Source of the DNA: an uncultured Anaerolineae bacterium
GTDB taxonomy: Bacteria > Chloroflexota > Anaerolineae > VGOG01
NCBI GenBank assembly: GCA_964400825.1
Contig: CAYNWI010000001.1
Span: 1,166-33,067 of the forward strand
DNA length: 31,902 nucleotides
Reading direction: 5' to 3'
Below, in pieces: positions 3,691-20,102 of the stretch. The notes below the pieces were generated by a model. That model made no database searches, was not told the origin of the DNA, and saw only the letters and a program-made list of their open reading frames with translations. How positions within the stretch are numbered: the stretch's first letter is position 1; every line of letters starts with the position of its first letter. The position numbers and the translations under genes are program-made.

Positions 3691-6600
3691 ATGTTCAAAG
3701 AAGTAGCTAGCAAAGTCAACTTTCCCGAGATGGAGGAGGGTGTCCTCCGTTTCTGGAAAGAGAACAACGTTTTCGAGAAGAGCCTGGAGATTCGCCGGGA
3801 TGCCCCTCGCTACATTTTTTACGAAGGCCCTCCCACAGCCAATGGCCTGCCTGGCATTCACCACGTGCTGGCTCGGGTGTTCAAAGATCTCTTCCCCCGC
3901 TACAGGACGATGAAGGGCTACTACGTCCTGCGAAAGGGCGGCTGGGATACCCACGGCCTGCCGGTCGAACTGGAGATCGAGAAGGAGCTGAGCCTCAACA
4001 GCAAGCAGGCCATCGAGGAGTATGGCGTGGTTGAGTTCAACGCCCACTGCCGGGAGAGCGTCTTCCGCTACGTCAGGGAGTGGGAGGAACTGACCGACCG
4101 CATCGGCTTCTGGATTGACATGGATGACCCCTATATCACCCTGAAGAACGAATACATCGAATCGGTGTGGTGGATCCTCAAGCAGTTGTGGGATAAAGAC
4201 CTCATCTACCAGGGCTATAAAGTTGTACCTTATTGCCCTCGCTGTGGCACGCCCCTCTCCTCGCACGAGCAACACTATCCCGGGGCGATGCATGAGACTG
4301 ATGACCCTTCTATCTACGTCAAGTTCCCCGTGTGGGATGAGCCTGGGACCTACTTTCTGGTTTGGACCACTACTCCCTGGACGCTGCCTGGCAACGTGGC
4401 CCTGGCCGTCCATCCCCAGATCGAGTACGTCATGGTGGAGCAGGAAAGGGAGGGCGAGAAGGAGCGGCTGATCCTGGCCCAAGAGCTGCTGGACGAGGTA
4501 CTGGATGGTCCCTACGAGGTTGTGCGAAGCGTACCAGGTAAGGAACTGCTGAAGATGCACTATCAGCCCCTGTTCACTTTTCTGCCGGTGGAGAAGGACT
4601 ATTGCTACGTGGTTCCTGGCGACTTCGTGAACACCAAGGAGGGCACGGGCGTGGTGCACATCGCACCCGCCTTCGGCGCAGAGGACCTGGAGGTGGGCCA
4701 GGAGTACGATCTGCCCGTGCTGCATACCGTTGACCTGCGCGGCGCTTTCATTGACGATGTTACCCCCTGGCGGGGACTGTTCGTCAAAGATGCTGATCCC
4801 CTGATCGTCGAGGATTTGCAGGGGCGCGGGCTGATGTACAAAGTGGGGACCTATCGCCACGTCTACCCCTTCTGCTGGCGCTGTAAGACCCCTCTTTTAT
4901 ACTACGCCAAGGCTACCTGGTACATCGAGACTACCCGCTACCGGGACGAGTTGGTGAATCTCAATCGCCAGATCAATTGGTACCCGGAGCACATCCGCGA
5001 TGGCCGCTTTGGCAACTGGCTGGAAAACAACGTGGACTGGGCCCTGGGCCGCGAGCGCTACTGGGGAACGCCTTTGCCCGTCTGGGTTTGCGAGGAATGT
5101 GGGCGGCAGGAGTGTATCGGAAGTGTCGAGGAACTGCAATCCAAGGTTTCAGGTTTCAGGTTTCAGGTTCCAGGTTCTGGTGAAAACCTGCAACCTGCAA
5201 CCTACAACCTCGAACAATTGGATCTTCACCGTCCTTACATTGACGCTGTCACCTACCGCTGCCCGGACTGCGATGGCACCATGCGGCGCGTACCTGAGGT
5301 GATAGATACCTGGTTCGACTCAGGCTCTATGCCTGTGGCTCAGTGGCACTACCCCTTCGCCAACCGGGAGATGTTCGAGGAGCAGTTCCCGGCCGATTTT
5401 ATCTGCGAGGCGGTGGACCAGACCAGAGGGTGGTTCTATAGCCTGCACGCTATCTCTACCTTGCTGTTCAACGAGCCTTGTTTCAGGAATTGCGTGTGCC
5501 TGGGTCTGATCCTGGACGCCGAGGGCGAGAAGATGTCCAAGACCAGAGGCAACGTGGTGGATCCCTGGACGGTGCTAAACGCCCACGGCGCCGATGCCCT
5601 GCGCTGGTATCTATACACCGCCACCCCGCCGGGCAACGACCGCCGCTTCTCCGTCGAGCTGGTAGGTGAGGTGATCCGCACCTTCATGCTGACCCTGTGG
5701 AACGTGTATTCCTTCTTTGTGACCTATGCCAACATTGACGGCTGGCAACCGACGCGTAGATTCGTAACCCGTGAATCCGTAGATTTGGGTATTGACGAGC
5801 CTACGAATCCCGAGGTCACGAGTCTGCCCGACCTTGACCGCTGGATCCTGTCCGAACTGCACCTGCTCGTCCAGCGCGTCACCGATGCCCTGGAAAACTA
5901 CGACGTGACCGGTGCCGCGCGGCCCTTCCAGCGCTTCGTGGATGACCTCTCCAACTGGTACGTGCGCCTCAGCCGCCGCCGCTTCTGGAAGAGCGAGGAG
6001 GACGAGGACAAGGCAGCCGCCTACTACACTCTCTACGAGTGCCTGACTACCCTGTCCAAACTGCTGGCTCCGTTCATGCCCTTCATCGCCGAGGAGATGT
6101 ACCAGAATCTGTCGAGGAGCGTTGACGCGACAGCGCCGGAAAGCGTCCATCTCTGCGGCTACCCCCAGGCCGATGTAGCTCTCATAGATGAGCAGTTGGT
6201 GGAGGATACGCGGCTGGTCATGCGTCTGGTGAGCCTGGGGCACGGAGCCCGCAACCGCGCCGGCCTCAAACTGCGGCAGCCTCTGGCCCAGGCCCTGTTC
6301 AAAGTGCGGAGCGAAAGCGAGGTCGAGTCCCTGCGCCGCCTGGCCGATCAGGTGCTGGATGAGCTTAACGTGAAAGAGTTGGTCTTCTTGGAGGACGCTG
6401 GTCAGGTGGTTGATTACCATGTAATCCCTCTGCCGCGTCTCTTGGGCAAGAAGTATGGCGCCCTGTTCCCCAAGGTTCGGGCGGCCCTGGCCGAGTTGGA
6501 CCAGGCTGAGCTGGCCCGGCGCGTGCAGGCTGGTGAGACCGTCGCGCTGGACATCGTCGGGCAGACCGTGAATCTTCTGCCGGAGGAGTTAGAGGTGCGA

Positions 6601-11221: not shown

Positions 11222-11782
11222 ATGTCAACTAAAGTTCCAATCTATCAGATCAAGGTCACGCTAGATGACAGCAAGCCGCCTATCTGGCGGCGCATCCTGG
11301 TGCCCAGCGACATCACCCTGGCAAAACTACACCGCATCCTCCAGGTCGTGATGGGATGGTCGGATTACCACCTTCACCAGTTCATCGTCGGAGGGGCCTA
11401 CATTGGTGAGCCTCACCCCGACTATGACGATTACCTGGACATGCACGACGAACGGGACGTGACGCTACGCCAGATCGTGTCCGGCGAGAGGTTCAAGTTC
11501 CGCTACGAGTACGACTTTGGGGATAGTTGGCTGCACCAGGTGCTGGTGGAGAAGGTGTTGCCGCCGCAGCCAGGCCAGCAGTACCCGCTGTGCATCAAGG
11601 GCAAGCGCGCCTGCCCACCGGAGGACGTGGGCGGGGTATGGGGCTACGGCGACTTCTTGGAGGCCATCCAGAACCCCGACCACCCTGAGCACGAGGAGTA
11701 CCTGGAGTGGGTAGGCGGCGAATTCGACCCCGAGGAGTTTGACCTGGACGGGGTCAACGAGGTGTTACGCACGTTGCGATGA
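11222..11782 (+). CDS. Plasmid pRiA4b ORF-3 family protein
   Basis: YQIKVTL...PPIWRRILVP, LHRILQVVMGWSDYHLHQF, YEYDFGDSW, GKRACPPEDVGG. Confidence 0.92.
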   Translation: MSTKVPIYQIKVTLDDSKPPIWRRILVPSDITLAKLHRILQVVMGWSDYHLHQFIVGGAYIGEPHPDYDDYLDMHDERDVTLRQIVSGERFKFRYEYDFGDSWLHQVLVEKVLPPQPGQQYPLCIKGKRACPPEDVGGVWGYGDFLEAIQNPDHPEHEEYLEWVGGEFDPEEFDLDGVNEVLRTLR

Positions 11783-13262: not shown

Positions 13263-13277
13263 CGAGGTATAGTGCCC

Positions 13278-13961
13278 ATGAGAATCCTGGTGATTGACGA
13301 GGACGAAGAATTCTCCAAAAGCCTCCGCTATTCTCTGCAGCGGGAAGGGCATCCCGTCTTCGTTGCCCTCGATAGCTCTTCCATCCCAACCCTGGTCTGG
13401 AAACACAAGCCTGACTTGATCATCCTCGACAAAGACCTGCTGGAGATTGACGGTCTTCGCCCTTTCGCTTCCTTGCAGGAGGACGTTGACATGCCGCTCA
13501 TACTTCTCGTTGCTCACGTTAAGGAGGAGGGGCGAAGAGAAGAGGAGTTGTCAGGGGAGCGTATCAGAGCCTTCGGGCTAAAGCATCTTCGTCGTGCGGA
13601 GGCGATCCTGCGACGGTTGCGTAGGCTCTTCGAGGAAGAGAGGACTATCCTGGAGATAGGCCAGTTGACTATTGACTTTGAGAAGAAACGAGTCACTTTC
13701 TACGATAAGCCCTTGTCTTTAACCCCCATCCAATTCCATCTACTGAGCTCTTTGGCCCTCGATGCCGGCCGAGTGATGGGCTATCGGGAACTCCTGGAGA
13801 ACGTGTGGGGTTACAAAGGGGAGGACAGCGAGGCGCGGGAACTGCTCAAGGTCCACATCAACCGCATGAGGCAGAAGATGAAAGCGATAGCCGGGGGGGG
13901 AGAGAGTTATATCCAATCGGTGCGGGGCTTTGGCTATAGGTTGTCTCCCCCAGACGAATAA
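13278..13961 (+). CDS. OmpR/PhoB-family response regulator, atypical receiver
   Basis: MRILVIDED...PDLIILD receiver start; wHTH with LTPIQFHLL, LLENVWG, VHINRMRQK, IQSVRGFGYRL. Confidence 0.88.
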   Translation: MRILVIDEDEEFSKSLRYSLQREGHPVFVALDSSSIPTLVWKHKPDLIILDKDLLEIDGLRPFASLQEDVDMPLILLVAHVKEEGRREEELSGERIRAFGLKHLRRAEAILRRLRRLFEEERTILEIGQLTIDFEKKRVTFYDKPLSLTPIQFHLLSSLALDAGRVMGYRELLENVWGYKGEDSEARELLKVHINRMRQKMKAIAGGGESYIQSVRGFGYRLSPPDE

Positions 13962-13981
13962 AGGCAACAAGTTTTTGACCC

Positions 13982-14030
13982 AACAGGGAATCTCTCGGGC
14001 AATGAGAGATCCCCTGTTTGCGTTCTTTTA
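13982..14030 (+). terminator. Probable terminator hairpin after the regulator
   Basis: AACAGGGAATCTCTC/GAGAGATCCCCTGTT (14/15 paired), then a T-rich tract. Confidence 0.6.
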
Positions 14031-14114
14031 CCGATCCTTAACCAAAGTGTAACCGTTTTCTCACCAAAGATTAACTGACTTGTTACTGACATCCTGGCGA
14101 ATTTAGGTTATAAT
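14027..14114 (+). promoter_or_regulatory. Promoter with six 11-bp-phased direct repeats (OmpR/PhoB-type operator array)
   Basis: TTTACC 14027, TTAACC 14038, GTAACC 14049, CTCACC 14060, TTAACT 14071, GTTACT 14082; CTGACA (14086-14091), 17 nt, TATAAT (14109-14114). Confidence 0.75.
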
Positions 14115-14149
14115 TGATGACAATCATGTTTGAGGAAGGAGGTATTAAA

Positions 14150-14335
14150 ATGGCCAAGTGCCCTGAATGCGGAAACCCAATCGAGGTGGGCAAAAGTGTG
14201 AAGCTGGGAGCGAACATCGAATGCCCAGAATGTGGCACGGTGCTGGAAGTCATCAGCCTAAGCCCCCCCGATCTGGACTACGCTCTTGGAGACGAGGACT
14301 GGGAAGATTGGGAGGAAGAAGAAGAAGAGGCATAA
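14150..14335 (+). CDS. LysW-like zinc-ribbon small protein with acidic tail
   Basis: CPECG...CPECG...LEVISLSPPDLD as in LysW; AAGGAGG RBS; ends DEDWEDWEEEEEEA rather than EDWGE. Confidence 0.85.
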   Translation: MAKCPECGNPIEVGKSVKLGANIECPECGTVLEVISLSPPDLDYALGDEDWEDWEEEEEEA

Positions 14336-14383
14336 CTTCCTCCGCCAGCAGGACATCCCATTCCAAAAGCACACGCGAAACAG

Positions 14384-14412
14384 AGCCCTAACCTGCTGGA
14401 CAGGTTAGGGCT
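14384..14412. repeat. 12-bp perfect inverted repeat
   Basis: AGCCCTAACCTG-CTGGA-CAGGTTAGGGCT. Confidence 0.8.
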
Positions 14413-14478
14413 TACCTCTCCCTACCCATCACAAGACCGTCAGGTCAGGCGAGAGGCGATTTAAGATCACCAGGACCG

Positions 14479-14627
14479 TTGTCAACGGCTTTTTGCCCGA
14501 AATACGTCGCCAGAATTGTCTTGGACGACCAGAACAAGAAGAAGTTGTAAAAATCACCAGCCTCCCCCTCGGTCTGGACTATACTGCCGAGAGCTGGAGT
14601 GAGGACTGGGAGAAAGAGGAGTACTGA
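14479..14627 (+). pseudogene. Decayed second LysW-like copy
   Basis: TTG 14479 frame: MSTAFCPKYVARIVLDD; other frame ending TGA 14625-14627: EEVVKITSLPLGLDYTAESWSEDWEKEEY, which parallels EVISLSPPDLDYALGDEDWEDWEEEEE. Confidence 0.6.
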
Positions 14628-14629
14628 AA

Positions 14630-15976
14630 ATGGATTCTGAAGAACCTCTTGGAGATAAGCCTCCCCCCCGTAGCCCAAATCGTCCTCCGATTTGGAAAAG
14701 CGTGGGCGAGGCGCAGTGGAATGATTGGCGGTGGCAGCTTACCCATCGCCTCAGCACAGCCGAAGCATTGGCCCAGGTTATCCACCTCACACCCGAAGAA
14801 GAGGCGGCGCTAGCTGCCCCAGGCCACTTTCGGGTTGATATCACCCCCTATTTTGCCAGCCTGATGGACCCCACCGACCCAACCTGCCCCATCCGTCGTC
14901 AGGTCGTCCCGACGGCCCATGAACTGGAACCCTTCGACCCAGCCACGGCCGACTCGTTGAACGAAGACCGCCACTCCCCCGTGCCAGGGCTGGTCCACCG
15001 CTATCCCGATCGGGTGCTGATGCTGGTCACCACCCAGTGCGCCAGCTACTGCCGCTTCTGTACCCGCAGCCGGGTGGTGGGCGACCCCACGGTCCAGTTC
15101 AGCCGCACCGATTACGATCAGCAGCTCGACTACATCGCCCGCACGCCGCAGGTGCGGGACGTGCTCCTCTCAGGGGGCGATCCTCTGACGCTGCCCCCCA
15201 GGGTACTGGAGGGTTTGCTCAGTAGCCTGCGGGCCATCCCACACGTGGAGGTCATTCGTATCGGTACCCGCGTGCCTGTCTTTCTGCCCATGCGGATTAA
15301 CGAAGAACTGACGGCCATGTTGCGGCAGTTCCACCCCCTGTGGATGAACATCCACTTCAATCACCCTAAGGAAATCACACCAGAGGTGCGCCAGGCCTGC
15401 GAGATGCTGGCCGACGCCGGCATCCCCTTGGGGTCGCAGACGGTGCTCCTGGCCGGGATCAACGACTGTCCCAACGTCATCAAGGCCCTGGTGCACGAGC
15501 TGGTCAAGATCCGCGTCCGACCCTACTATCTCTACCAGTGCGACCCGGTGCACGGCACCAGCCACCTCCGCACCCCGGTAGCCAAGGGGATCGAGATCAT
15601 CGAAGCCCTGCGGGGCCACACCAGCGGCTTCTGCATCCCCACCTACGTCATCGACGCGCCAGGTGGTGGGGGCAAAGTGCCTATCATGCCCCAGTACCTC
15701 ATCAGCCAATCGGACACACGGGTGGCGGTGCGCAACTTCGAGGGCTTCGTCAGCACCTACCCCCAGCCCACGGACTACCAGCCCCACAACCCGGCCCTTT
15801 GCGCCTATTGTCAAACGGCGCGGCCAGAGCCGGGTCAGGAAGGAGTGGAGGGGCTGCTGGCTGGTCAGGCCACGACCATCGCCCCTGAGGGCTTCGATAG
15901 GGTGCACCAGCGCCAGACCCGCATCGCCTGGCAGTCAGTCTGGCAAGTGCCGACAGTAGTCAAGGAAGTGGTCTGA
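14630..15976 (+). CDS. kamA: KamA-family radical SAM aminomutase (lysine 2,3-aminomutase-like)
   Basis: WNDWRWQL, LVHRYPDRVL, CASYCRFC, LLSGGDPL, HFNHPKE, YLYQCD, YVIDAPGGGGK (PLP lysine). Confidence 0.95.
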   Translation: MDSEEPLGDKPPPRSPNRPPIWKSVGEAQWNDWRWQLTHRLSTAEALAQVIHLTPEEEAALAAPGHFRVDITPYFASLMDPTDPTCPIRRQVVPTAHELEPFDPATADSLNEDRHSPVPGLVHRYPDRVLMLVTTQCASYCRFCTRSRVVGDPTVQFSRTDYDQQLDYIARTPQVRDVLLSGGDPLTLPPRVLEGLLSSLRAIPHVEVIRIGTRVPVFLPMRINEELTAMLRQFHPLWMNIHFNHPKEITPEVRQACEMLADAGIPLGSQTVLLAGINDCPNVIKALVHELVKIRVRPYYLYQCDPVHGTSHLRTPVAKGIEIIEALRGHTSGFCIPTYVIDAPGGGGKVPIMPQYLISQSDTRVAVRNFEGFVSTYPQPTDYQPHNPALCAYCQTARPEPGQEGVEGLLAGQATTIAPEGFDRVHQRQTRIAWQSVWQVPTVVKEVV

Positions 15977-17091
15977 TGCCCAGTTTCAGAGTTGCTCTGC
16001 TGTATAACCTGAAGCACAACGCCCCCCAGGAGCCCGGTGCTCCGCCCGACGCCCTGGCCGAGTATGACTCCATAGAGACTGTCCAGGCCCTTGAGGATGC
16101 TCTGCGGGCCGGTGGTCACCAGGTGATCCCTTTGGAAGGGGACAAGACGCTGTTGGACACCATTCGCCAAGCCGATCCCGACATCGCCTTCAACATCTGC
16201 GAGGGGCATCGGGGTGATGCCCGGGAATCTCAGGTGCCGGCCCTGTTGGAGATGCTGGACATCCCCTACACGGGTTCCAAAATCCTGGCTCAGGCTATCT
16301 CTCTGGACAAGGCCATAGCCAAGCGGGTGTGGCGGGACTGCGGCCTGCCCACTGCTCCTTTCCAGGTCTTCTACCACGAGCACCAGCCACTGGATGAGCA
16401 ACTGGCCTTTCCCCTGTTTGTCAAGCCGGCGCGTGAGGGCTCAGGGATGGGGATCAACGGCCACTCCGTCGTCCACGATGAGGCCGATCTGCGAGAGCAA
16501 GTGCGTTGGGTGCTCCAAACCTACCGCCAGCCGGCCCTGGTGGAAGCGCATCTACCAGGGCGGGAGTTCACTGTGGGCCTCATTGGCAACGTCATGGCAC
16601 CGGGGGAGCGGCCGTGGAAGGGCACCCTGACCGACCGAGAGTGCCGGCTGTACGACGAACGGGGCTTCCATCTTTTTCCGGTGTTGGAGATCGACTCCCA
16701 GGCGAGTGTCGGTCAGGGACTGTACAACGCAGAAGCCAAGTCCTACCACCCTGGTGAGGAAGGGGCGCCCCTCTACCTTTGCCCGGCGGACATTCCCTCG
16801 GACCTGGAGGCCGAACTGAAGCGTTTGGCCGTAGCCGCCTTTGAAGTCATTGGGGCCCTGGACGTGGCCCGGGTGGACTTCCGGCTGGGTGCTGGCGGGC
16901 AACCTTACCTCATAGAAATCAACACCCTGCCAGGCCTGAACCCGACGGTGAGCGACCTGTGCATCGTGGCCCGCGCCGAGGGGATGCATTACCCAGACCT
17001 GATCAACGAGATCCTGAACCTGGCGATAGATCGCTACGGATTGGGGTGGGATATGGGCTTCTCTTCCCGCTTCCGCCGGCCATTCCTATAG
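15976..17091 (+). CDS. Ddl-like ATP-grasp ligase 1
   Basis: FNICEG, PYTGS, LDKAIAK, FVKPAREGSGMGI, GREFTVG, ARVDFR, EINTLPGL; TGATG coupling to kamA. Confidence 0.9.
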   Translation: MPSFRVALLYNLKHNAPQEPGAPPDALAEYDSIETVQALEDALRAGGHQVIPLEGDKTLLDTIRQADPDIAFNICEGHRGDARESQVPALLEMLDIPYTGSKILAQAISLDKAIAKRVWRDCGLPTAPFQVFYHEHQPLDEQLAFPLFVKPAREGSGMGINGHSVVHDEADLREQVRWVLQTYRQPALVEAHLPGREFTVGLIGNVMAPGERPWKGTLTDRECRLYDERGFHLFPVLEIDSQASVGQGLYNAEAKSYHPGEEGAPLYLCPADIPSDLEAELKRLAVAAFEVIGALDVARVDFRLGAGGQPYLIEINTLPGLNPTVSDLCIVARAEGMHYPDLINEILNLAIDRYGLGWDMGFSSRFRRPFL

Positions 17092-17129: not shown

Positions 17130-18314
17130 ATGCATTCAGACGAAAAGCCTCCTGGGGTGGTTGTGTTGTACAACCACAGCCAAGGGCTGGTGAAGGGCGA
17201 GCCTCGCGACCTGCTGGCGGAACAGGGGGTCATCGCCTGCGCCCATGCCATAGCGGAAGCGCTCCACATGGCCGGTCGGCGGGTGGAGTTGGTGCCCATC
17301 TACAGCGATGTAGAGTTGGCGCTGGCATCGTATCCTCCTCTGGACTGGGTGGTTTTCAACCTGGGGGAAGGGCTGGCGGGGCGACTCTTCGAGGAAGTAC
17401 GCATTGCCTGGGCTTTGGAGGCCATGGGCTACGCCTTTACCGGCTCGGGAGGGGATGCCATCCTCCGCTCGACCCATAAGGAACAGGCAAAGACGCTGCT
17501 GGCCGAGGCGGGCGTGCCAACTCCACCCGGGCGGATCTTTTACGACCCGGGGGAAGTGGAGGAGCACAGTGTCGCTACGCTCCCCTTCCCTCTCATAGTC
17601 AAGCCGGTAGCTGAGGACGCCAGTCTCGGAGTCAGCACAGACGCTGTGGTACACACCCCAGCAGCCTTGCAAGCGCGAGTGGCCTACGTGGTAGAGCGTT
17701 ACCGGCAGGGAGCGCTGGCGGAGCAGTTCATTGGCGGACGGGAGTTCAACATCTCCTTATGGGGCCATCTGCCACAAGTTCTGCCCCTGGCGGAGATAGA
17801 CTTCAGCGCCTTTGACGATCCTTTCCAGCGCATCGTTTCCTTTGCTGCGAAGTGGGAAGAGGACTCTTTTGCCTACAACCATACCCCTGTGGTCTGCCCG
17901 GCTAACGTGGCGTCGGTTCTCCGTGACCGCATTATTGCCACTGCCCAGCGGGCCTGGAGAGCCATCGGCTGCCGGGGCTACGCACGGGTCGACATGCGTG
18001 TGGCCGCCGATGACACGCCCTGCGTCGTGGAGGTTAACTGCAATCCCGACATCTCGCCGGATGCCGGCTTCTTCCGCGCCGCTCGTGCCGCCGGGTACAA
18101 CTACGTGGGGATGGTCACTCATATTCTGAACCTTGCCTTAAGACGGCGCAACACCTGTGATTACGAAAGCGAAAGAGCAAGATGGCTCACAAGTTCTGCA
18201 TCTAACCGCCGCCGCTGGCGTTTTCAAGCCAGACGAAGTGGCCTGCGTCCAGGAGTTATGGGACGCTTACCTGCGACAGGGCGAAGCCAGTGGCTACGTT
18301 TTTTTGGTTTATAA
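17130..18314 (+). CDS. Ddl-like ATP-grasp ligase 2 (homology ends near 18150)
   Basis: FNLGEG, FTGSG, VKPVAEDASLGV, GREFNIS, GYARVDMR, EVNCNPD; AAGGAGGTGA RBS before ATG 17130. Confidence 0.88.
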   Translation: MHSDEKPPGVVVLYNHSQGLVKGEPRDLLAEQGVIACAHAIAEALHMAGRRVELVPIYSDVELALASYPPLDWVVFNLGEGLAGRLFEEVRIAWALEAMGYAFTGSGGDAILRSTHKEQAKTLLAEAGVPTPPGRIFYDPGEVEEHSVATLPFPLIVKPVAEDASLGVSTDAVVHTPAALQARVAYVVERYRQGALAEQFIGGREFNISLWGHLPQVLPLAEIDFSAFDDPFQRIVSFAAKWEEDSFAYNHTPVVCPANVASVLRDRIIATAQRAWRAIGCRGYARVDMRVAADDTPCVVEVNCNPDISPDAGFFRAARAAGYNYVGMVTHILNLALRRRNTCDYESERARWLTSSASNRRRWRFQARRSGLRPGVMGRLPATGRSQWLRFFGL

Positions 18315-18747
18315 GAACGGGGACCGCCTCCTGGGCTACGCCTGCTTCGGGCCTCACACGCTGACCGAGGGGACCTTCGACCTGTACTGGATTGCCGTAG
18401 ACCCGGAGGCGCAGGGGCAGGGCATCGGCCACGCCCTGCTGGCGCGGGTGGAAGAGGAGGTGCAGGCCCGAGGAGGCCGGCTGCTGCTGGTAGAGACATC
18501 AGGCACCGCGGCGTATGCCCCAGCTTGTCGCTTGTATGAATCCTGTGGCTACCATTACGAAGCGGCAGTCCACGATTTTTATGCTCCTGGCGATGACCTG
18601 ATCCTCTACACCAAACCCCTCACGCCCACACCGATGATGAAAACGCCATGTTATCCCTTGATGACGCCCAACGGCACGACCCTGGCCACCTTGCGAGCGA
18701 CTCCCGTCGAGTGTACTACGTTGACCACTCGGTCTACATCCTTGTAG
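18157..18747 (+). CDS. GNAT family N-acetyltransferase (homology ends near 18620)
   Basis: GYACFGP, DLYWIAVDPEAQGQGIGHALL, VETSG...Y, DFYAPGDD. Confidence 0.88.
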   Translation: MITKAKEQDGSQVLHLTAAAGVFKPDEVACVQELWDAYLRQGEASGYVFLVYKNGDRLLGYACFGPHTLTEGTFDLYWIAVDPEAQGQGIGHALLARVEEEVQARGGRLLLVETSGTAAYAPACRLYESCGYHYEAAVHDFYAPGDDLILYTKPLTPTPMMKTPCYPLMTPNGTTLATLRATPVECTTLTTRSTSL

Positions 18748-20102
18748 GCATCAGGAGCCTCCTCGGCCAGACCAGACATGCTGCCGCCCCGCACGATGAT
18801 GCCACTTTCCGCCAACTCCCGTTGTAACTCCTGTCCCCGGATCTTCTTCCTGGCTGCGCTCCGGCTCATGACCCGCCCCGCCCCGTGGCAGGAGGTGCCA
18901 AAGGTCTTCTCCATAGCCTCAGTGGTACCCACCAGGACGTAGGAGGCCGTGCCCATGTCGCCGGGGATCAAGACTGGCTGACCCACCTCTCGATAGTCGG
19001 CAGGCACATCCTTCATCCCCGGCCCGAAGGCCCGCGTGGCCCCTTTGCGGTGGATGATCAGTTTGGTGGGTTTTCCGTCAATGGGGTACTCCTCTACCTT
19101 GGCGATGTTGTGAGCCACGTCGTAGACCAGAGTCAGCTCGCGGTCTTTGACCACGCCAGCCAGCACGTCGTCCACGACTTGGCGCACGCGGTGGGCCAGA
19201 ACCTGGCGGTTGGCCCAGGCGTAGTTGGCGGCGCAGGCCATGGCGGCGAAATAGTCGCGTCCTTCGGGCGAATCGAAGGGAGCGCAGACCAGCTCTCGGT
19301 CGGGCAATTTGATGCCGTATTTGGTCACTGCCTGCTGCAGGTCGCGCACGTAGTCGGTGCACACCTGATGGCCCAGGCCCCGCGAGCCGGTGTGGATCCA
19401 AACCACCAATTGGCCCTCGAACAGGCCGAAGGCATCCGCTATCTCCCGGTCGTAGACCTCCTCCACCTCGCCCACCTCGACGAAGTGGTTGCCTGAGCCC
19501 AGGGTTCCTAATTGATCAGCGCCTCGCTTCTTGGCCCTTGGGCTCACCACCCTTGCTTCAGCCCCAGCCAAAGCCCCCTGCTCCTCGGTGTGCTCCAGGT
19601 CGTCTTTCGTGCCGTAGCCCTGGCTCACCGCCCAGGCCGATCCCTTCTCCAAAACGTCGTCCATATCCCGGTGAGAGAGCCTGATGTCCCCGCTGCGGCC
19701 CACGCCGCTGGGCACGCCTTGGAAGAGGGCGTTGACGATCTCATCCATGATGGGCTTGACTTCTTCGGCCATGATATTGGACCTGAGAAGCCTGACGCCG
19801 CAGTTGATATCGTAACCCACAGCCCCAGGCGAGATGACCCCGTCGGAGGTTCTCAGGGGAATCACCCCACCGATGGGCGGGCCATAGCCCTGATGGATGT
19901 CGGGCATGGCCAGGGTGTACTTGACCACGCCGGGCAGCGTCGCGGTGTTGATCAACTGCTCTACGGAGCGATCCTTCAACGCTGCCTCTAAAAGCTCCTC
20001 GTCGGCGTATAGCCGAGCCGGCACCCGCATGTCGGGCCGAAAACTCTTTGGAATCTCGTAAACGTATTCCTCTACTCGCTTCATGTCCTTCTTGTCAACC
20101 AT
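18651..20102 (-). CDS. rtcB: RtcB family RNA ligase
   Basis: MPDIHQGYG, GYDINCGVR, GTLGSGNHF, HTGSRG, HNIAK, HRKGA, SCHGAGR. Confidence 0.96.
   Translation of the reverse strand: MVDKKDMKRVEEYVYEIPKSFRPDMRVPARLYADEELLEAALKDRSVEQLINTATLPGVVKYTLAMPDIHQGYGPPIGGVIPLRTSDGVISPGAVGYDINCGVRLLRSNIMAEEVKPIMDEIVNALFQGVPSGVGRSGDIRLSHRDMDDVLEKGSAWAVSQGYGTKDDLEHTEEQGALAGAEARVVSPRAKKRGADQLGTLGSGNHFVEVGEVEEVYDREIADAFGLFEGQLVVWIHTGSRGLGHQVCTDYVRDLQQAVTKYGIKLPDRELVCAPFDSPEGRDYFAAMACAANYAWANRQVLAHRVRQVVDDVLAGVVKDRELTLVYDVAHNIAKVEEYPIDGKPTKLIIHRKGATRAFGPGMKDVPADYREVGQPVLIPGDMGTASYVLVGTTEAMEKTFGTSCHGAGRVMSRSAARKKIRGQELQRELAESGIIVRGGSMSGLAEEAPDAYKDVDRVVNVVHSTGVARKVARVVPLGVIKG

Follow-up and report, generated by a model that had tools for sequence, protein, structure and literature searches.

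Gene content of the locus

The window (the whole stretch of 31,902 nt that was analysed) carries an OmpR-type response regulator gene followed by an intact gene for a small LysW-like zinc-ribbon protein (copy 1), by kamA, by two genes for D-Ala-D-Ala-ligase-like ATP-grasp proteins, and by a GNAT acetyltransferase gene (Table 1). Copy 1 and kamA are separated by 294 nt that would otherwise be empty. This gap is explained by a 149-nt relic at 14479-14627, directly 5' of kamA, which is a broken second LysW-like zinc-ribbon gene (copy 2). Among the enzymes encoded downstream, ATP-grasp ligase 1 scores below every curated Ddl cut-off, and the GNAT protein reaches 21 bits with the AblB model, the cut-off of which is 205. 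The GNAT gene shares 97 nt at its 3' end (18651-18747) with a convergent RtcB gene (18651-20102, minus strand). Elsewhere the window encodes an RVT_3/RNase-H-like protein (2009-2659) and a PRiA4_ORF3-family protein (11222-11782; E = 5e-75), both with housekeeping genes as neighbours (IleRS, LspA, ADSL, RibF, TruB, IF-2, NusA, and ProRS). Given such surroundings, the cluster is chromosomal and not on an obvious mobile element.

Table 1. Coordinates of the cluster genes, of the regulatory features and of the parts of the copy-2 relic in the window
Feature	Position	Strand	Basis and remarks
OmpR-type response regulator	13272-13961	+	Pfam Response_reg, Trans_reg_C; its place 5' of the LysW-like gene(s) is conserved
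Promoter-like site CTGACA-17-TATAAT	14086-14114	+	11 of 12 matches; sole sigma-70-like match in 13900-14800
Copy 1, intact LysW-like zinc-ribbon gene	14150-14335	+	61 aa; CPEC...CPEC; tail DEDWEDWEEEEEEA
Stem-loop of 13 bp, 3' of copy 1	14383-14413	+	Fold, and consensus structure common to L171, L172 and L175
Relic, first ORF	14479-14550	+	TTG start, 23 codons; reads MSTAFCPKYVARIVLDDQNKKKL
Relic, N-terminal piece (former codons 1-19, MSTAFCPKYVARIVLDDQN)	14479-14535	+	Aligned to the intact copy-2 proteins P0016, P0014 and L171
Relic, second ORF	14493-14627	+	TTG 14493, -1 frame, 44 aa; ends ...EEVVKITSLPLGLDYTAESWSEDWEKEEY
Relic, deletion junction	14530-14550	+	Alignment A1 (37-nt gap after 14541) and L181 pairwise alignment
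Relic, C-terminal piece (-1 frame, EEVVKITSLPLGLDYTAESWSEDWEKEEY and stop)	14538-14627	+	Copy-2 HMM, L181 alignment
kamA Shine-Dalgarno GAGGAG	14616-14621	+	8 nt before ATG, inside the last codons of the relic; read from the sequence
kamA/ablA, lysine 2,3-aminomutase	14630-15976	+	448 aa; TIGR03820 539 bits (cut-off 525); Pfam Radical_SAM, LAM_C
ATP-grasp ligase 1, D-Ala-D-Ala-ligase-like	15976-17091	+	Pfam Dala_Dala_lig_C; best structures Ddl
ATP-grasp ligase 2, D-Ala-D-Ala-ligase-like	17130-18314	+	Pfam Dala_Dala_lig_C; best solved-structure matches Ddl
GNAT acetyltransferase, last cluster gene	18304-18747	+	Pfam Acetyltransf_1

The copy 1 protein (MAKCPECGNPIEVGKSVKLGANIECPECGTVLEVISLSPPDLDYALGDEDWEDWEEEEEEA) matches the Pfam family Zn_ribbon_LysW (PF21344) at 48.4 bits (cut-off 27) and the lysW model TIGR01206 at 41 bits, which is under the cut-off of 53.2. 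Its best match among solved structures is LysW (5k2m_E; 3.5e-9), and it aligns from end to end with 5k2m_E and 3wwl_A; the zinc-binding cysteines of the LysW/ArgW globular domain, of which there are four (or three), are present as CPEC...CPEC. Copy 1, with its own promoter-like site, a strong Shine-Dalgarno sequence, and detectable mRNA, remains the working LysW-like gene. Parts of 14143-14378 are represented by RNA contigs from five metatranscriptomes that match the window exactly, and none of these contigs runs from copy 1 past 14378; a low-depth RNA contig at the start of kamA (14623-14773) came from one run only. The stem-loop 3' of copy 1 is likely a terminator, an attenuator, or an RNA-stabilising hairpin; taken with the copy-1 RNA contigs that end by 14378, it suggests a terminator or processing site giving a high ratio of copy-1 to enzyme mRNA. 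A promoter scan found no sigma-70-like promoter between this hairpin and kamA, and an Rfam scan of 13800-14800 returned one meaningless lncRNA match (E = 1); neither a lysine riboswitch nor another known RNA is present in the interval from copy 1 to kamA. At window position 14314, the X19 DNA contig and the X28 RNA contig carry a GAA insertion that adds one Glu to the poly-Glu stretch of copy 1; this looks like a slippage-type length polymorphism of the acidic tail.

A second LysW-like gene upstream of kamA

The original prediction placed a hidden second LysW-like copy, read in two different frames, immediately before kamA, and direct reading confirms its coordinates, both frames, and the spacing of 2 nt between the stop (TGA, 14625-14627) and the kamA ATG (14630). 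The tail frame is open over 62 codons up to that stop; an example of a peptide encoded by the relic (14479-14550 or 14493-14627) is ITSLPLGLDYTAESWSEDWEK. Its N-terminus, MSTAFCPKYVARIVL, fits the pattern M[AS]T[AV]FCPECGA[KR][IV]VL of a copy-2 subfamily with intact members in related genomes (see below), and equals one of these, P0016, at 13 of 17 residues. The tail, PLGLDYTAESWSEDWEKEEY, fits the subfamily pattern P-L-x-LDYA-x-ESW...EEE-x; it keeps ESW..DWE..EEY, and ends in ...SEDWEKEEY.

That the two segments are related is borne out by DNA alignment, by HMMs, and by shuffled controls. The local DNA alignment of the copy-1 and relic regions scores 34.5, compared with 12.9 +/- 2.1 for shuffles. 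A family HMM, built from eleven LysW-like proteins of related loci with the window's own copy excluded, matches the relic with its positions 2-18 in an N-terminal and 35-62 in a C-terminal piece; the two pieces lie in different frames and are collinear. The bit scores of these pieces are low (3.8 and 1.3), and their significance comes from shuffling only: three of 2000 dinucleotide-preserving shuffles reached the best single piece and none reached the collinear pair. Owing to the low scores this model was superseded by a copy-2-specific HMM, made from four intact copy-2 proteins (L171, P0014, P0015, and P0016) and run against all six reading frames of the window. Copy 1 ranks first with it, and the two pieces of the relic rank second and third: the N-terminal one with 17.8 bits (E = 1.4e-4; model positions 1-19) and the C-terminal one with 15.0 bits (E = 1e-3; positions 36-54). 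Again the matches are collinear, and exactly the second zinc knuckle is absent between them. A chance or compositional match of acidic, tryptophan-rich, low-complexity sequence would agree with the low scores of the first model and with the biased composition of the tail. It does not account for the agreement of the N-terminal piece, which is not acidic, with P0016 (TAFCP and ARIVLD included), nor for a run of 17 identical nt (CGCCAGAATTGTCTTGG) common to the relic and L171, nor for collinear pieces at the orthologous position that no shuffle bettered. Chance similarity is refuted by the shuffles, the nucleotide alignments, and the copy-2 HMM, and we give it practically no weight.

The frame break is genuine, since all 483 bases of 14150-14632 are identical across nine independently assembled contigs from different samples, and the DNA contigs of further runs are likewise free of indels in the relic; a tenth assembly differs by a single base, within copy 1. 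Homopolymer-rich stretches near the junction (AAGAAGAAG, AAAAA) could have raised the suspicion that copy 2 is intact, the frameshift being due to faulty sequencing or assembly or to a minority variant. Apart from the agreement of assemblies and contigs, by which error as the cause of the frame break is effectively refuted, repairing the gene needs 37 nt restored, Tyr turned back to Cys, and the start returned to ATG, for which one indel is insufficient. The probability of an intact copy 2 is consequently close to nil.

Lesions of copy 2

In nucleotide alignments the intact copy-2 genes of two relatives, L171 and L181, start with ATG where the relic has TTG, and the GGGAG Shine-Dalgarno sequence upstream of both is absent from the window. 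In the first knuckle TGC is replaced by TAC, which changes the second Cys of CPxC into Tyr, so that the knuckle reads CPKY. The intact genes measure 186 nt (L181) and 183 nt (L171), and the net loss in the relic is 37 nt and 34 nt, respectively; because both numbers leave a remainder of 1 on division by three, the frame is shifted by one. The lost segment encoded ...LGQxIDCPECGT, i.e., the second zinc knuckle, and its loss is the inactivating lesion. From PL to the stop the relic has the length of the L181 copy 2 (PLDLDYASESWGGGWEEEEY); the last 63 nt of the two are 82.5% identical as DNA, and the final 18 nt (junction GAGGAGTACTGAAAATGG) are identical in L181. The alignments therefore agree with the original description of a first CxxC that is broken, a second that is gone, and frames that differ. 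Lacking one zinc-binding cysteine in the first knuckle (CPKY) and the whole of the second, the relic cannot make a zinc ribbon.

Programmed -1 frameshifting, or transcriptional slippage, might be imagined to join the two frames into one protein of 49 aa, the shift needed being indeed -1 and A-rich runs being present at 14536-14554. The zero frame, however, has no slippery heptamer of the form X XXY YYZ; the product would be without five of the eight residues of the two CPxC knuckles, so that zinc binding would be impossible; and the arrangement is not kept in relatives. In view of the missing heptamer and the non-viable product, programmed frameshifting was rejected, and we regard a joined protein as extremely improbable.

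Copy 2 in related genomes

Scans with KamA gave 160 loci, nearly all from Chloroflexota, and closer relatives were found later by a search with copy 1. Two metagenomic relatives have an intact copy 2 of 60-61 aa with a Pfam Zn_ribbon_LysW match. In L171 it occupies 934-1116 (MATVFCPECGARIVLGAEEVELGQCIDCPECGTPLEVISIHPLDLDYAIESWEWEDEEEE) and stops 7 nt before kamA, the order being copy-1 orthologue, the same hairpin, a 446-nt spacer, intact copy 2, and kamA. In L181 it occupies 1172-1357 (MATAFCPECGAKIVLDAKKLKLGQRIDCPECGTPLEVISLHPLDLDYASESWGGGWEEEEY; protein P0014) and stops 2 nt before kamA, as in the window; this protein ends in EEEEY and shares the EEY ending with the relic. Relatives with a LysW-like gene just before kamA, the absence of which would have spoken against the original prediction, therefore do exist. 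A search with the L171 copy-2 protein found P0014 and also P0016, which begins MSTAFCPECGARIVLD. The gene for P0015 (in L183) is not adjacent to kamA, and kamA adjacency is thus not universal in the copy-2 subfamily. In more distant clusters a LysW-like gene lies 22-31 nt (L014, L104, and L111) or 73-108 nt (L022, L025, L096, and L099) upstream of kamA. Typing the single-copy LysW-like genes of distant clusters as copy 1 or copy 2 was abandoned as the scores were too close, and for these genes we claim positional equivalence to copy 2, not orthology. Three-frame translations of 15 further loci that contain ATP-grasp genes and have no LysW-like gene revealed no recognisable relic upstream of kamA.

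Judged by KamA, the nearest relatives of the window are L172 and L175 (83-85% identity), while L171 and L181 reach only 65-67%. Both of the near relatives have copies that are more degraded than the relic of the window: in L175 nothing but part of the tail survives (CTTGAGCTGGGTTACGCCAGCGGAGAGCTGAGAGTAGGAGGA), its frame interrupted by stops, and all that is left of copy 2 in L172 is ...GAAGAGGAGTACTGAGAATG, which corresponds to the kamA Shine-Dalgarno sequence and spacer. Each relic is closer to intact copy 2 than the relics are to one another. From the sequences we infer that copy 2 was probably lost separately, and fairly recently, in the lineages of the window, L172, and L175, whereas copy 1 persists, and that copy 2 is dispensable when copy 1 is present. 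Such repeated loss also means that the paralogues are at least partly redundant. The DNA identity to L181 amounts to 77-82% for the relic (compared with intact copy 2), 80-83% for copy 1, and 67-70% for kamA. The relic being nearly as similar to L181 as functional copy 1 is, either its inactivation is recent or some constraint persists; a recent inactivation, in evolutionary terms, is what we infer.

Third-codon-position identity to L171/L181 is 64-69% in copy 1 and only 48.6% in kamA, the LysW-like module being far less diverged between the clade of the window and L171/L181 than the adjacent kamA. Lateral exchange, gene conversion, or a strong codon or RNA constraint are possible reasons for the low divergence of these small genes. 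In addition, L171 (~740-900), L181 (~975-1100), and L172 (~4570-4700) have a non-coding element, some 125 nt long, which precedes intact copy 2 or kamA. Its core, GGGTGCA[AG]TTGCAAAGGC[AG]TAAGTA, is found at 789-813, 1018-1042, and 4615-4639 of these loci, respectively. Conservation of the element greatly exceeds that of the coding DNA on either side, also between clades whose KamA proteins share only about 65% identity. The element has no match in Rfam, and the window lacks it; a leader RNA of a new type, a riboswitch, or a regulator-binding region are possible interpretations.

Probable decay into a pseudogene

The region 14479-14627 is very probably a pseudogene, derived by decay from a second LysW-like zinc-ribbon gene. 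That the relic is homologous to LysW-like genes, that it carries lesions, that relatives have intact orthologues, and that decay occurred repeatedly and independently are the established points on which this reading builds. An intact homologue exists elsewhere, the frame is disrupted, and essential residues and initiation signals are lost, as is the rule in pseudogenes. In the ancestor, the response regulator and kamA would have been separated by two LysW-like genes, the second of which, copy 2, ended a few nt before the kamA start. In the course of decay, the ATG-type start would have given way to the present TTG, with loss of copy 2's own ribosome-binding site; a change of TGC to TAC would have substituted Tyr for a zinc-ligand Cys; and the deletion of a net 37 nt would have removed the second CPxC knuckle and shifted the frame. 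Only the last 20 nt or so would have stayed in use, as Shine-Dalgarno sequence and spacer of kamA.

Such a course resembles the ordinary decay of a tandem paralogue into a unitary pseudogene, the 3' end of which is kept as the initiation region of its neighbour. The relic has all the usual marks: a changed start codon, a lost Shine-Dalgarno sequence, a lost structural residue, and an out-of-frame internal deletion. The intact orthologues elsewhere and the different, independent lesions in sister lineages also match this pattern. Compared with ordinary paralogue decay there is nothing unusual save a small excess divergence, which suggests recent loss. For annotation purposes the relic is a detail, better labelled as a pseudogene than as a small ORF.

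Present use of the relic

The 3' end of the relic supplies the ribosome-binding site of kamA, GAGGAG, as had been predicted and as is confirmed from the sequence; the relic thereby shows the origin of that site. This region is the part of copy 2 that persists in the window, L172, and L181, and together with the spacer it appears to be the only part in current use.

Neither of the possible start codons is convincing. TTG 14479 is preceded only by an AGGA at 3 nt and lies within a small hairpin. TTG 14493 has no Shine-Dalgarno sequence within 15 nt, the nearest AGGA being 17 nt upstream; it is out of frame with the ancestral gene and is therefore a start codon by accident only. A protein search with the 44-aa tail ORF found no homologue among 5.8 billion proteins, and its frame is lost or disrupted in the nearest relatives, L172 and L175. 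A clean RNA contig over the relic was found in none of the five metatranscriptomes, in which low-depth contigs show presence, not absence. The relic might nonetheless still be translated as a short upstream ORF (44 aa from TTG 14493 or 23 aa from TTG 14479), be it for re-initiation at the kamA ATG, by coupling or leader-peptide control, or to furnish its acidic tail as a mini-carrier. Such a role would fit a frame that is open over 14493-14627 and stops 2 nt before the kamA ATG, a tail that keeps the ESW..DWE..EEY pattern and exactly the length of the L181 copy-2 tail, and a divergence below that expected of neutral DNA. Against it stand the want of a usable Shine-Dalgarno sequence at either TTG, the non-ancestral frame of TTG 14493, the lack of conservation of the ORF in L172 and L175, the lack of database homologues and of a clean RNA contig, and the fact that kamA has a Shine-Dalgarno sequence of its own. 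Moreover, canonical LysW requires its globular domain for recognition by the enzymes. Continued translation is thus quite unlikely. The credible start and the conservation in close relatives that characterise leader peptides are both missing from the relic; the 2-nt spacing is compatible with coupling. On balance the relic is presumably not translated.

Two functional suggestions of the original prediction have to be revised accordingly. Translational coupling of the LysW-like gene to kamA is plausible for the intact ancestral gene, with which the spacing of 2 nt between stop and ATG is compatible, but it probably does not operate in the present relic, given the TTG start, the loss of the upstream Shine-Dalgarno sequence, and the good one that kamA possesses. 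A tail-only peptide starting at TTG 14493 is unlikely on the grounds just given (initiation, RNA, conservation, and homologues).

Relation to known carrier systems

Canonical LysW and ArgW combine zinc-binding cysteines with an EDWGE motif, which is recognised by the GSWGR motif of LysX/ArgX, and the C-terminal Glu carries the substrate (PMC10433800). Like these carriers of Thermus, Sulfolobus, and Thermococcus, copy 1 is small and acidic, with an N-terminal CxxC...CxxC ribbon and an acidic ...EDW... tail, and the LysW-like gene is encoded beside an ATP-grasp ligase. The differences are considerable. The EDWGE ending is absent: copy 1 ends in EEEEEEA, the relic in EEY, and the LysW-like tails of relatives in V, F, I, W, L, D, K, Q, or E. 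Copy 1 stays below the TIGR01206 cut-off. The neighbouring ligases are of the Ddl type, not of the LysX/RimK type, and a GSWGR-like motif occurs in neither. The gene neighbours are KamA and GNAT instead of LysZ, LysY, LysJ, and LysK, none of which is found among the annotated ORFs of the 31.9-kb window. The carrier role that the original prediction saw supported is consequently not borne out, as neither copy has EDWGE-COOH and the ATP-grasp proteins are Ddl-like without GSWGR; on their sequence features the proteins of the window are LysW-like zinc-ribbon proteins, for which a carrier role is unproven.

The second system to be compared is AblA/AblB, which makes N-epsilon-acetyl-beta-lysine by means of lysine 2,3-aminomutase and a GNAT enzyme. 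KamA scores above the AblA equivalog cut-off, a GNAT gene is in the same operon, and the salt-marsh habitat of the source would fit an osmolyte role. Unlike in AblA/AblB, two Ddl-like ATP-grasp genes and the LysW-like gene(s) are inserted, and the GNAT protein, by its score, is not an AblB orthologue.

As a tentative and rather doubtful proposal, the LysW-like proteins of this Chloroflexota clade would form a new branch of amino-group-carrier or scaffold proteins, with Ddl-type ligases loading the tail and the GNAT protein acetylating. These proteins come in one to four copies and have poly-Glu tails with a hydrophobic or aromatic end; some relatives additionally encode a 103-aa protein, the tail of which is of the EEWE/D type. 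Both Ddl-type ligases may attach KamA-derived beta-lysine (or lysine) to the tail carboxylates, and the system may run parallel to LysW/LysX with other enzymes. Were this true, the relic would testify to a former carrier, copy 2, that was coupled to kamA and served together with copy 1; and if the LysW-like proteins are carriers or substrates of the ligases, beta-lysine metabolism would come within the reach of carrier-protein chemistry.

Recurrence of the cluster

The wider value of the relic is as a pointer to a recurrent Chloroflexota cluster, which is more interesting than the relic and deserves study. In this cluster lysine 2,3-aminomutase, two Ddl-like ATP-grasp proteins, and a GNAT protein are encoded along with a response regulator and one to four LysW-like proteins. 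Literature searches gave nothing relevant that connects LysW with an aminomutase or with beta-lysine, or ATP-grasp enzymes with a carrier protein, and they turned up no description of the cluster. The order of response regulator and LysW-like gene recurs in L014, L025, L096, L099, L111, L148, L165, L166, L176, and L177-L180. Among the distant loci, L014, L022, L025, L030, L094, L096, L099, L104, L111, L148, L165, and L166 have a LysW-like gene that is either flanked by response regulator and kamA or placed beside the first ATP-grasp gene. Of the 41 loci in which kamA adjoins a Ddl-like ATP-grasp gene, 12 have a LysW-like gene, compared with none of the 119 other kamA loci (Fisher p = 2e-8, for loci that are not phylogenetically independent).

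The arrangement varies among relatives. In L177 (4001-5716), L178 (3666-5381), L179 (597-2315), and L180 (647-2071), the regulator is followed by three to four tandem LysW-like genes of the copy-1 type and then by a gene for a 103-aa protein that has no Pfam hit and an acidic EEVEEWE/D tail; kamA is absent. A convergent RtcB gene comes after the array in L180, just as it comes after the cluster in the window, so that one syntenic site occurs both with and without the kamA-ligase-GNAT block. In L181 the order is copy 1, 103-aa gene, copy 2, and kamA. L172 (3658-4114), as well as L173 and L174, has an extra LysW-like gene (MTTAFCPECEHSL..., with a non-acidic end) 5' of copy 1; this gene is followed by a C-terminal fragment of the response-regulator gene, a full regulator gene lies 3' of GNAT, and the locus is rearranged.
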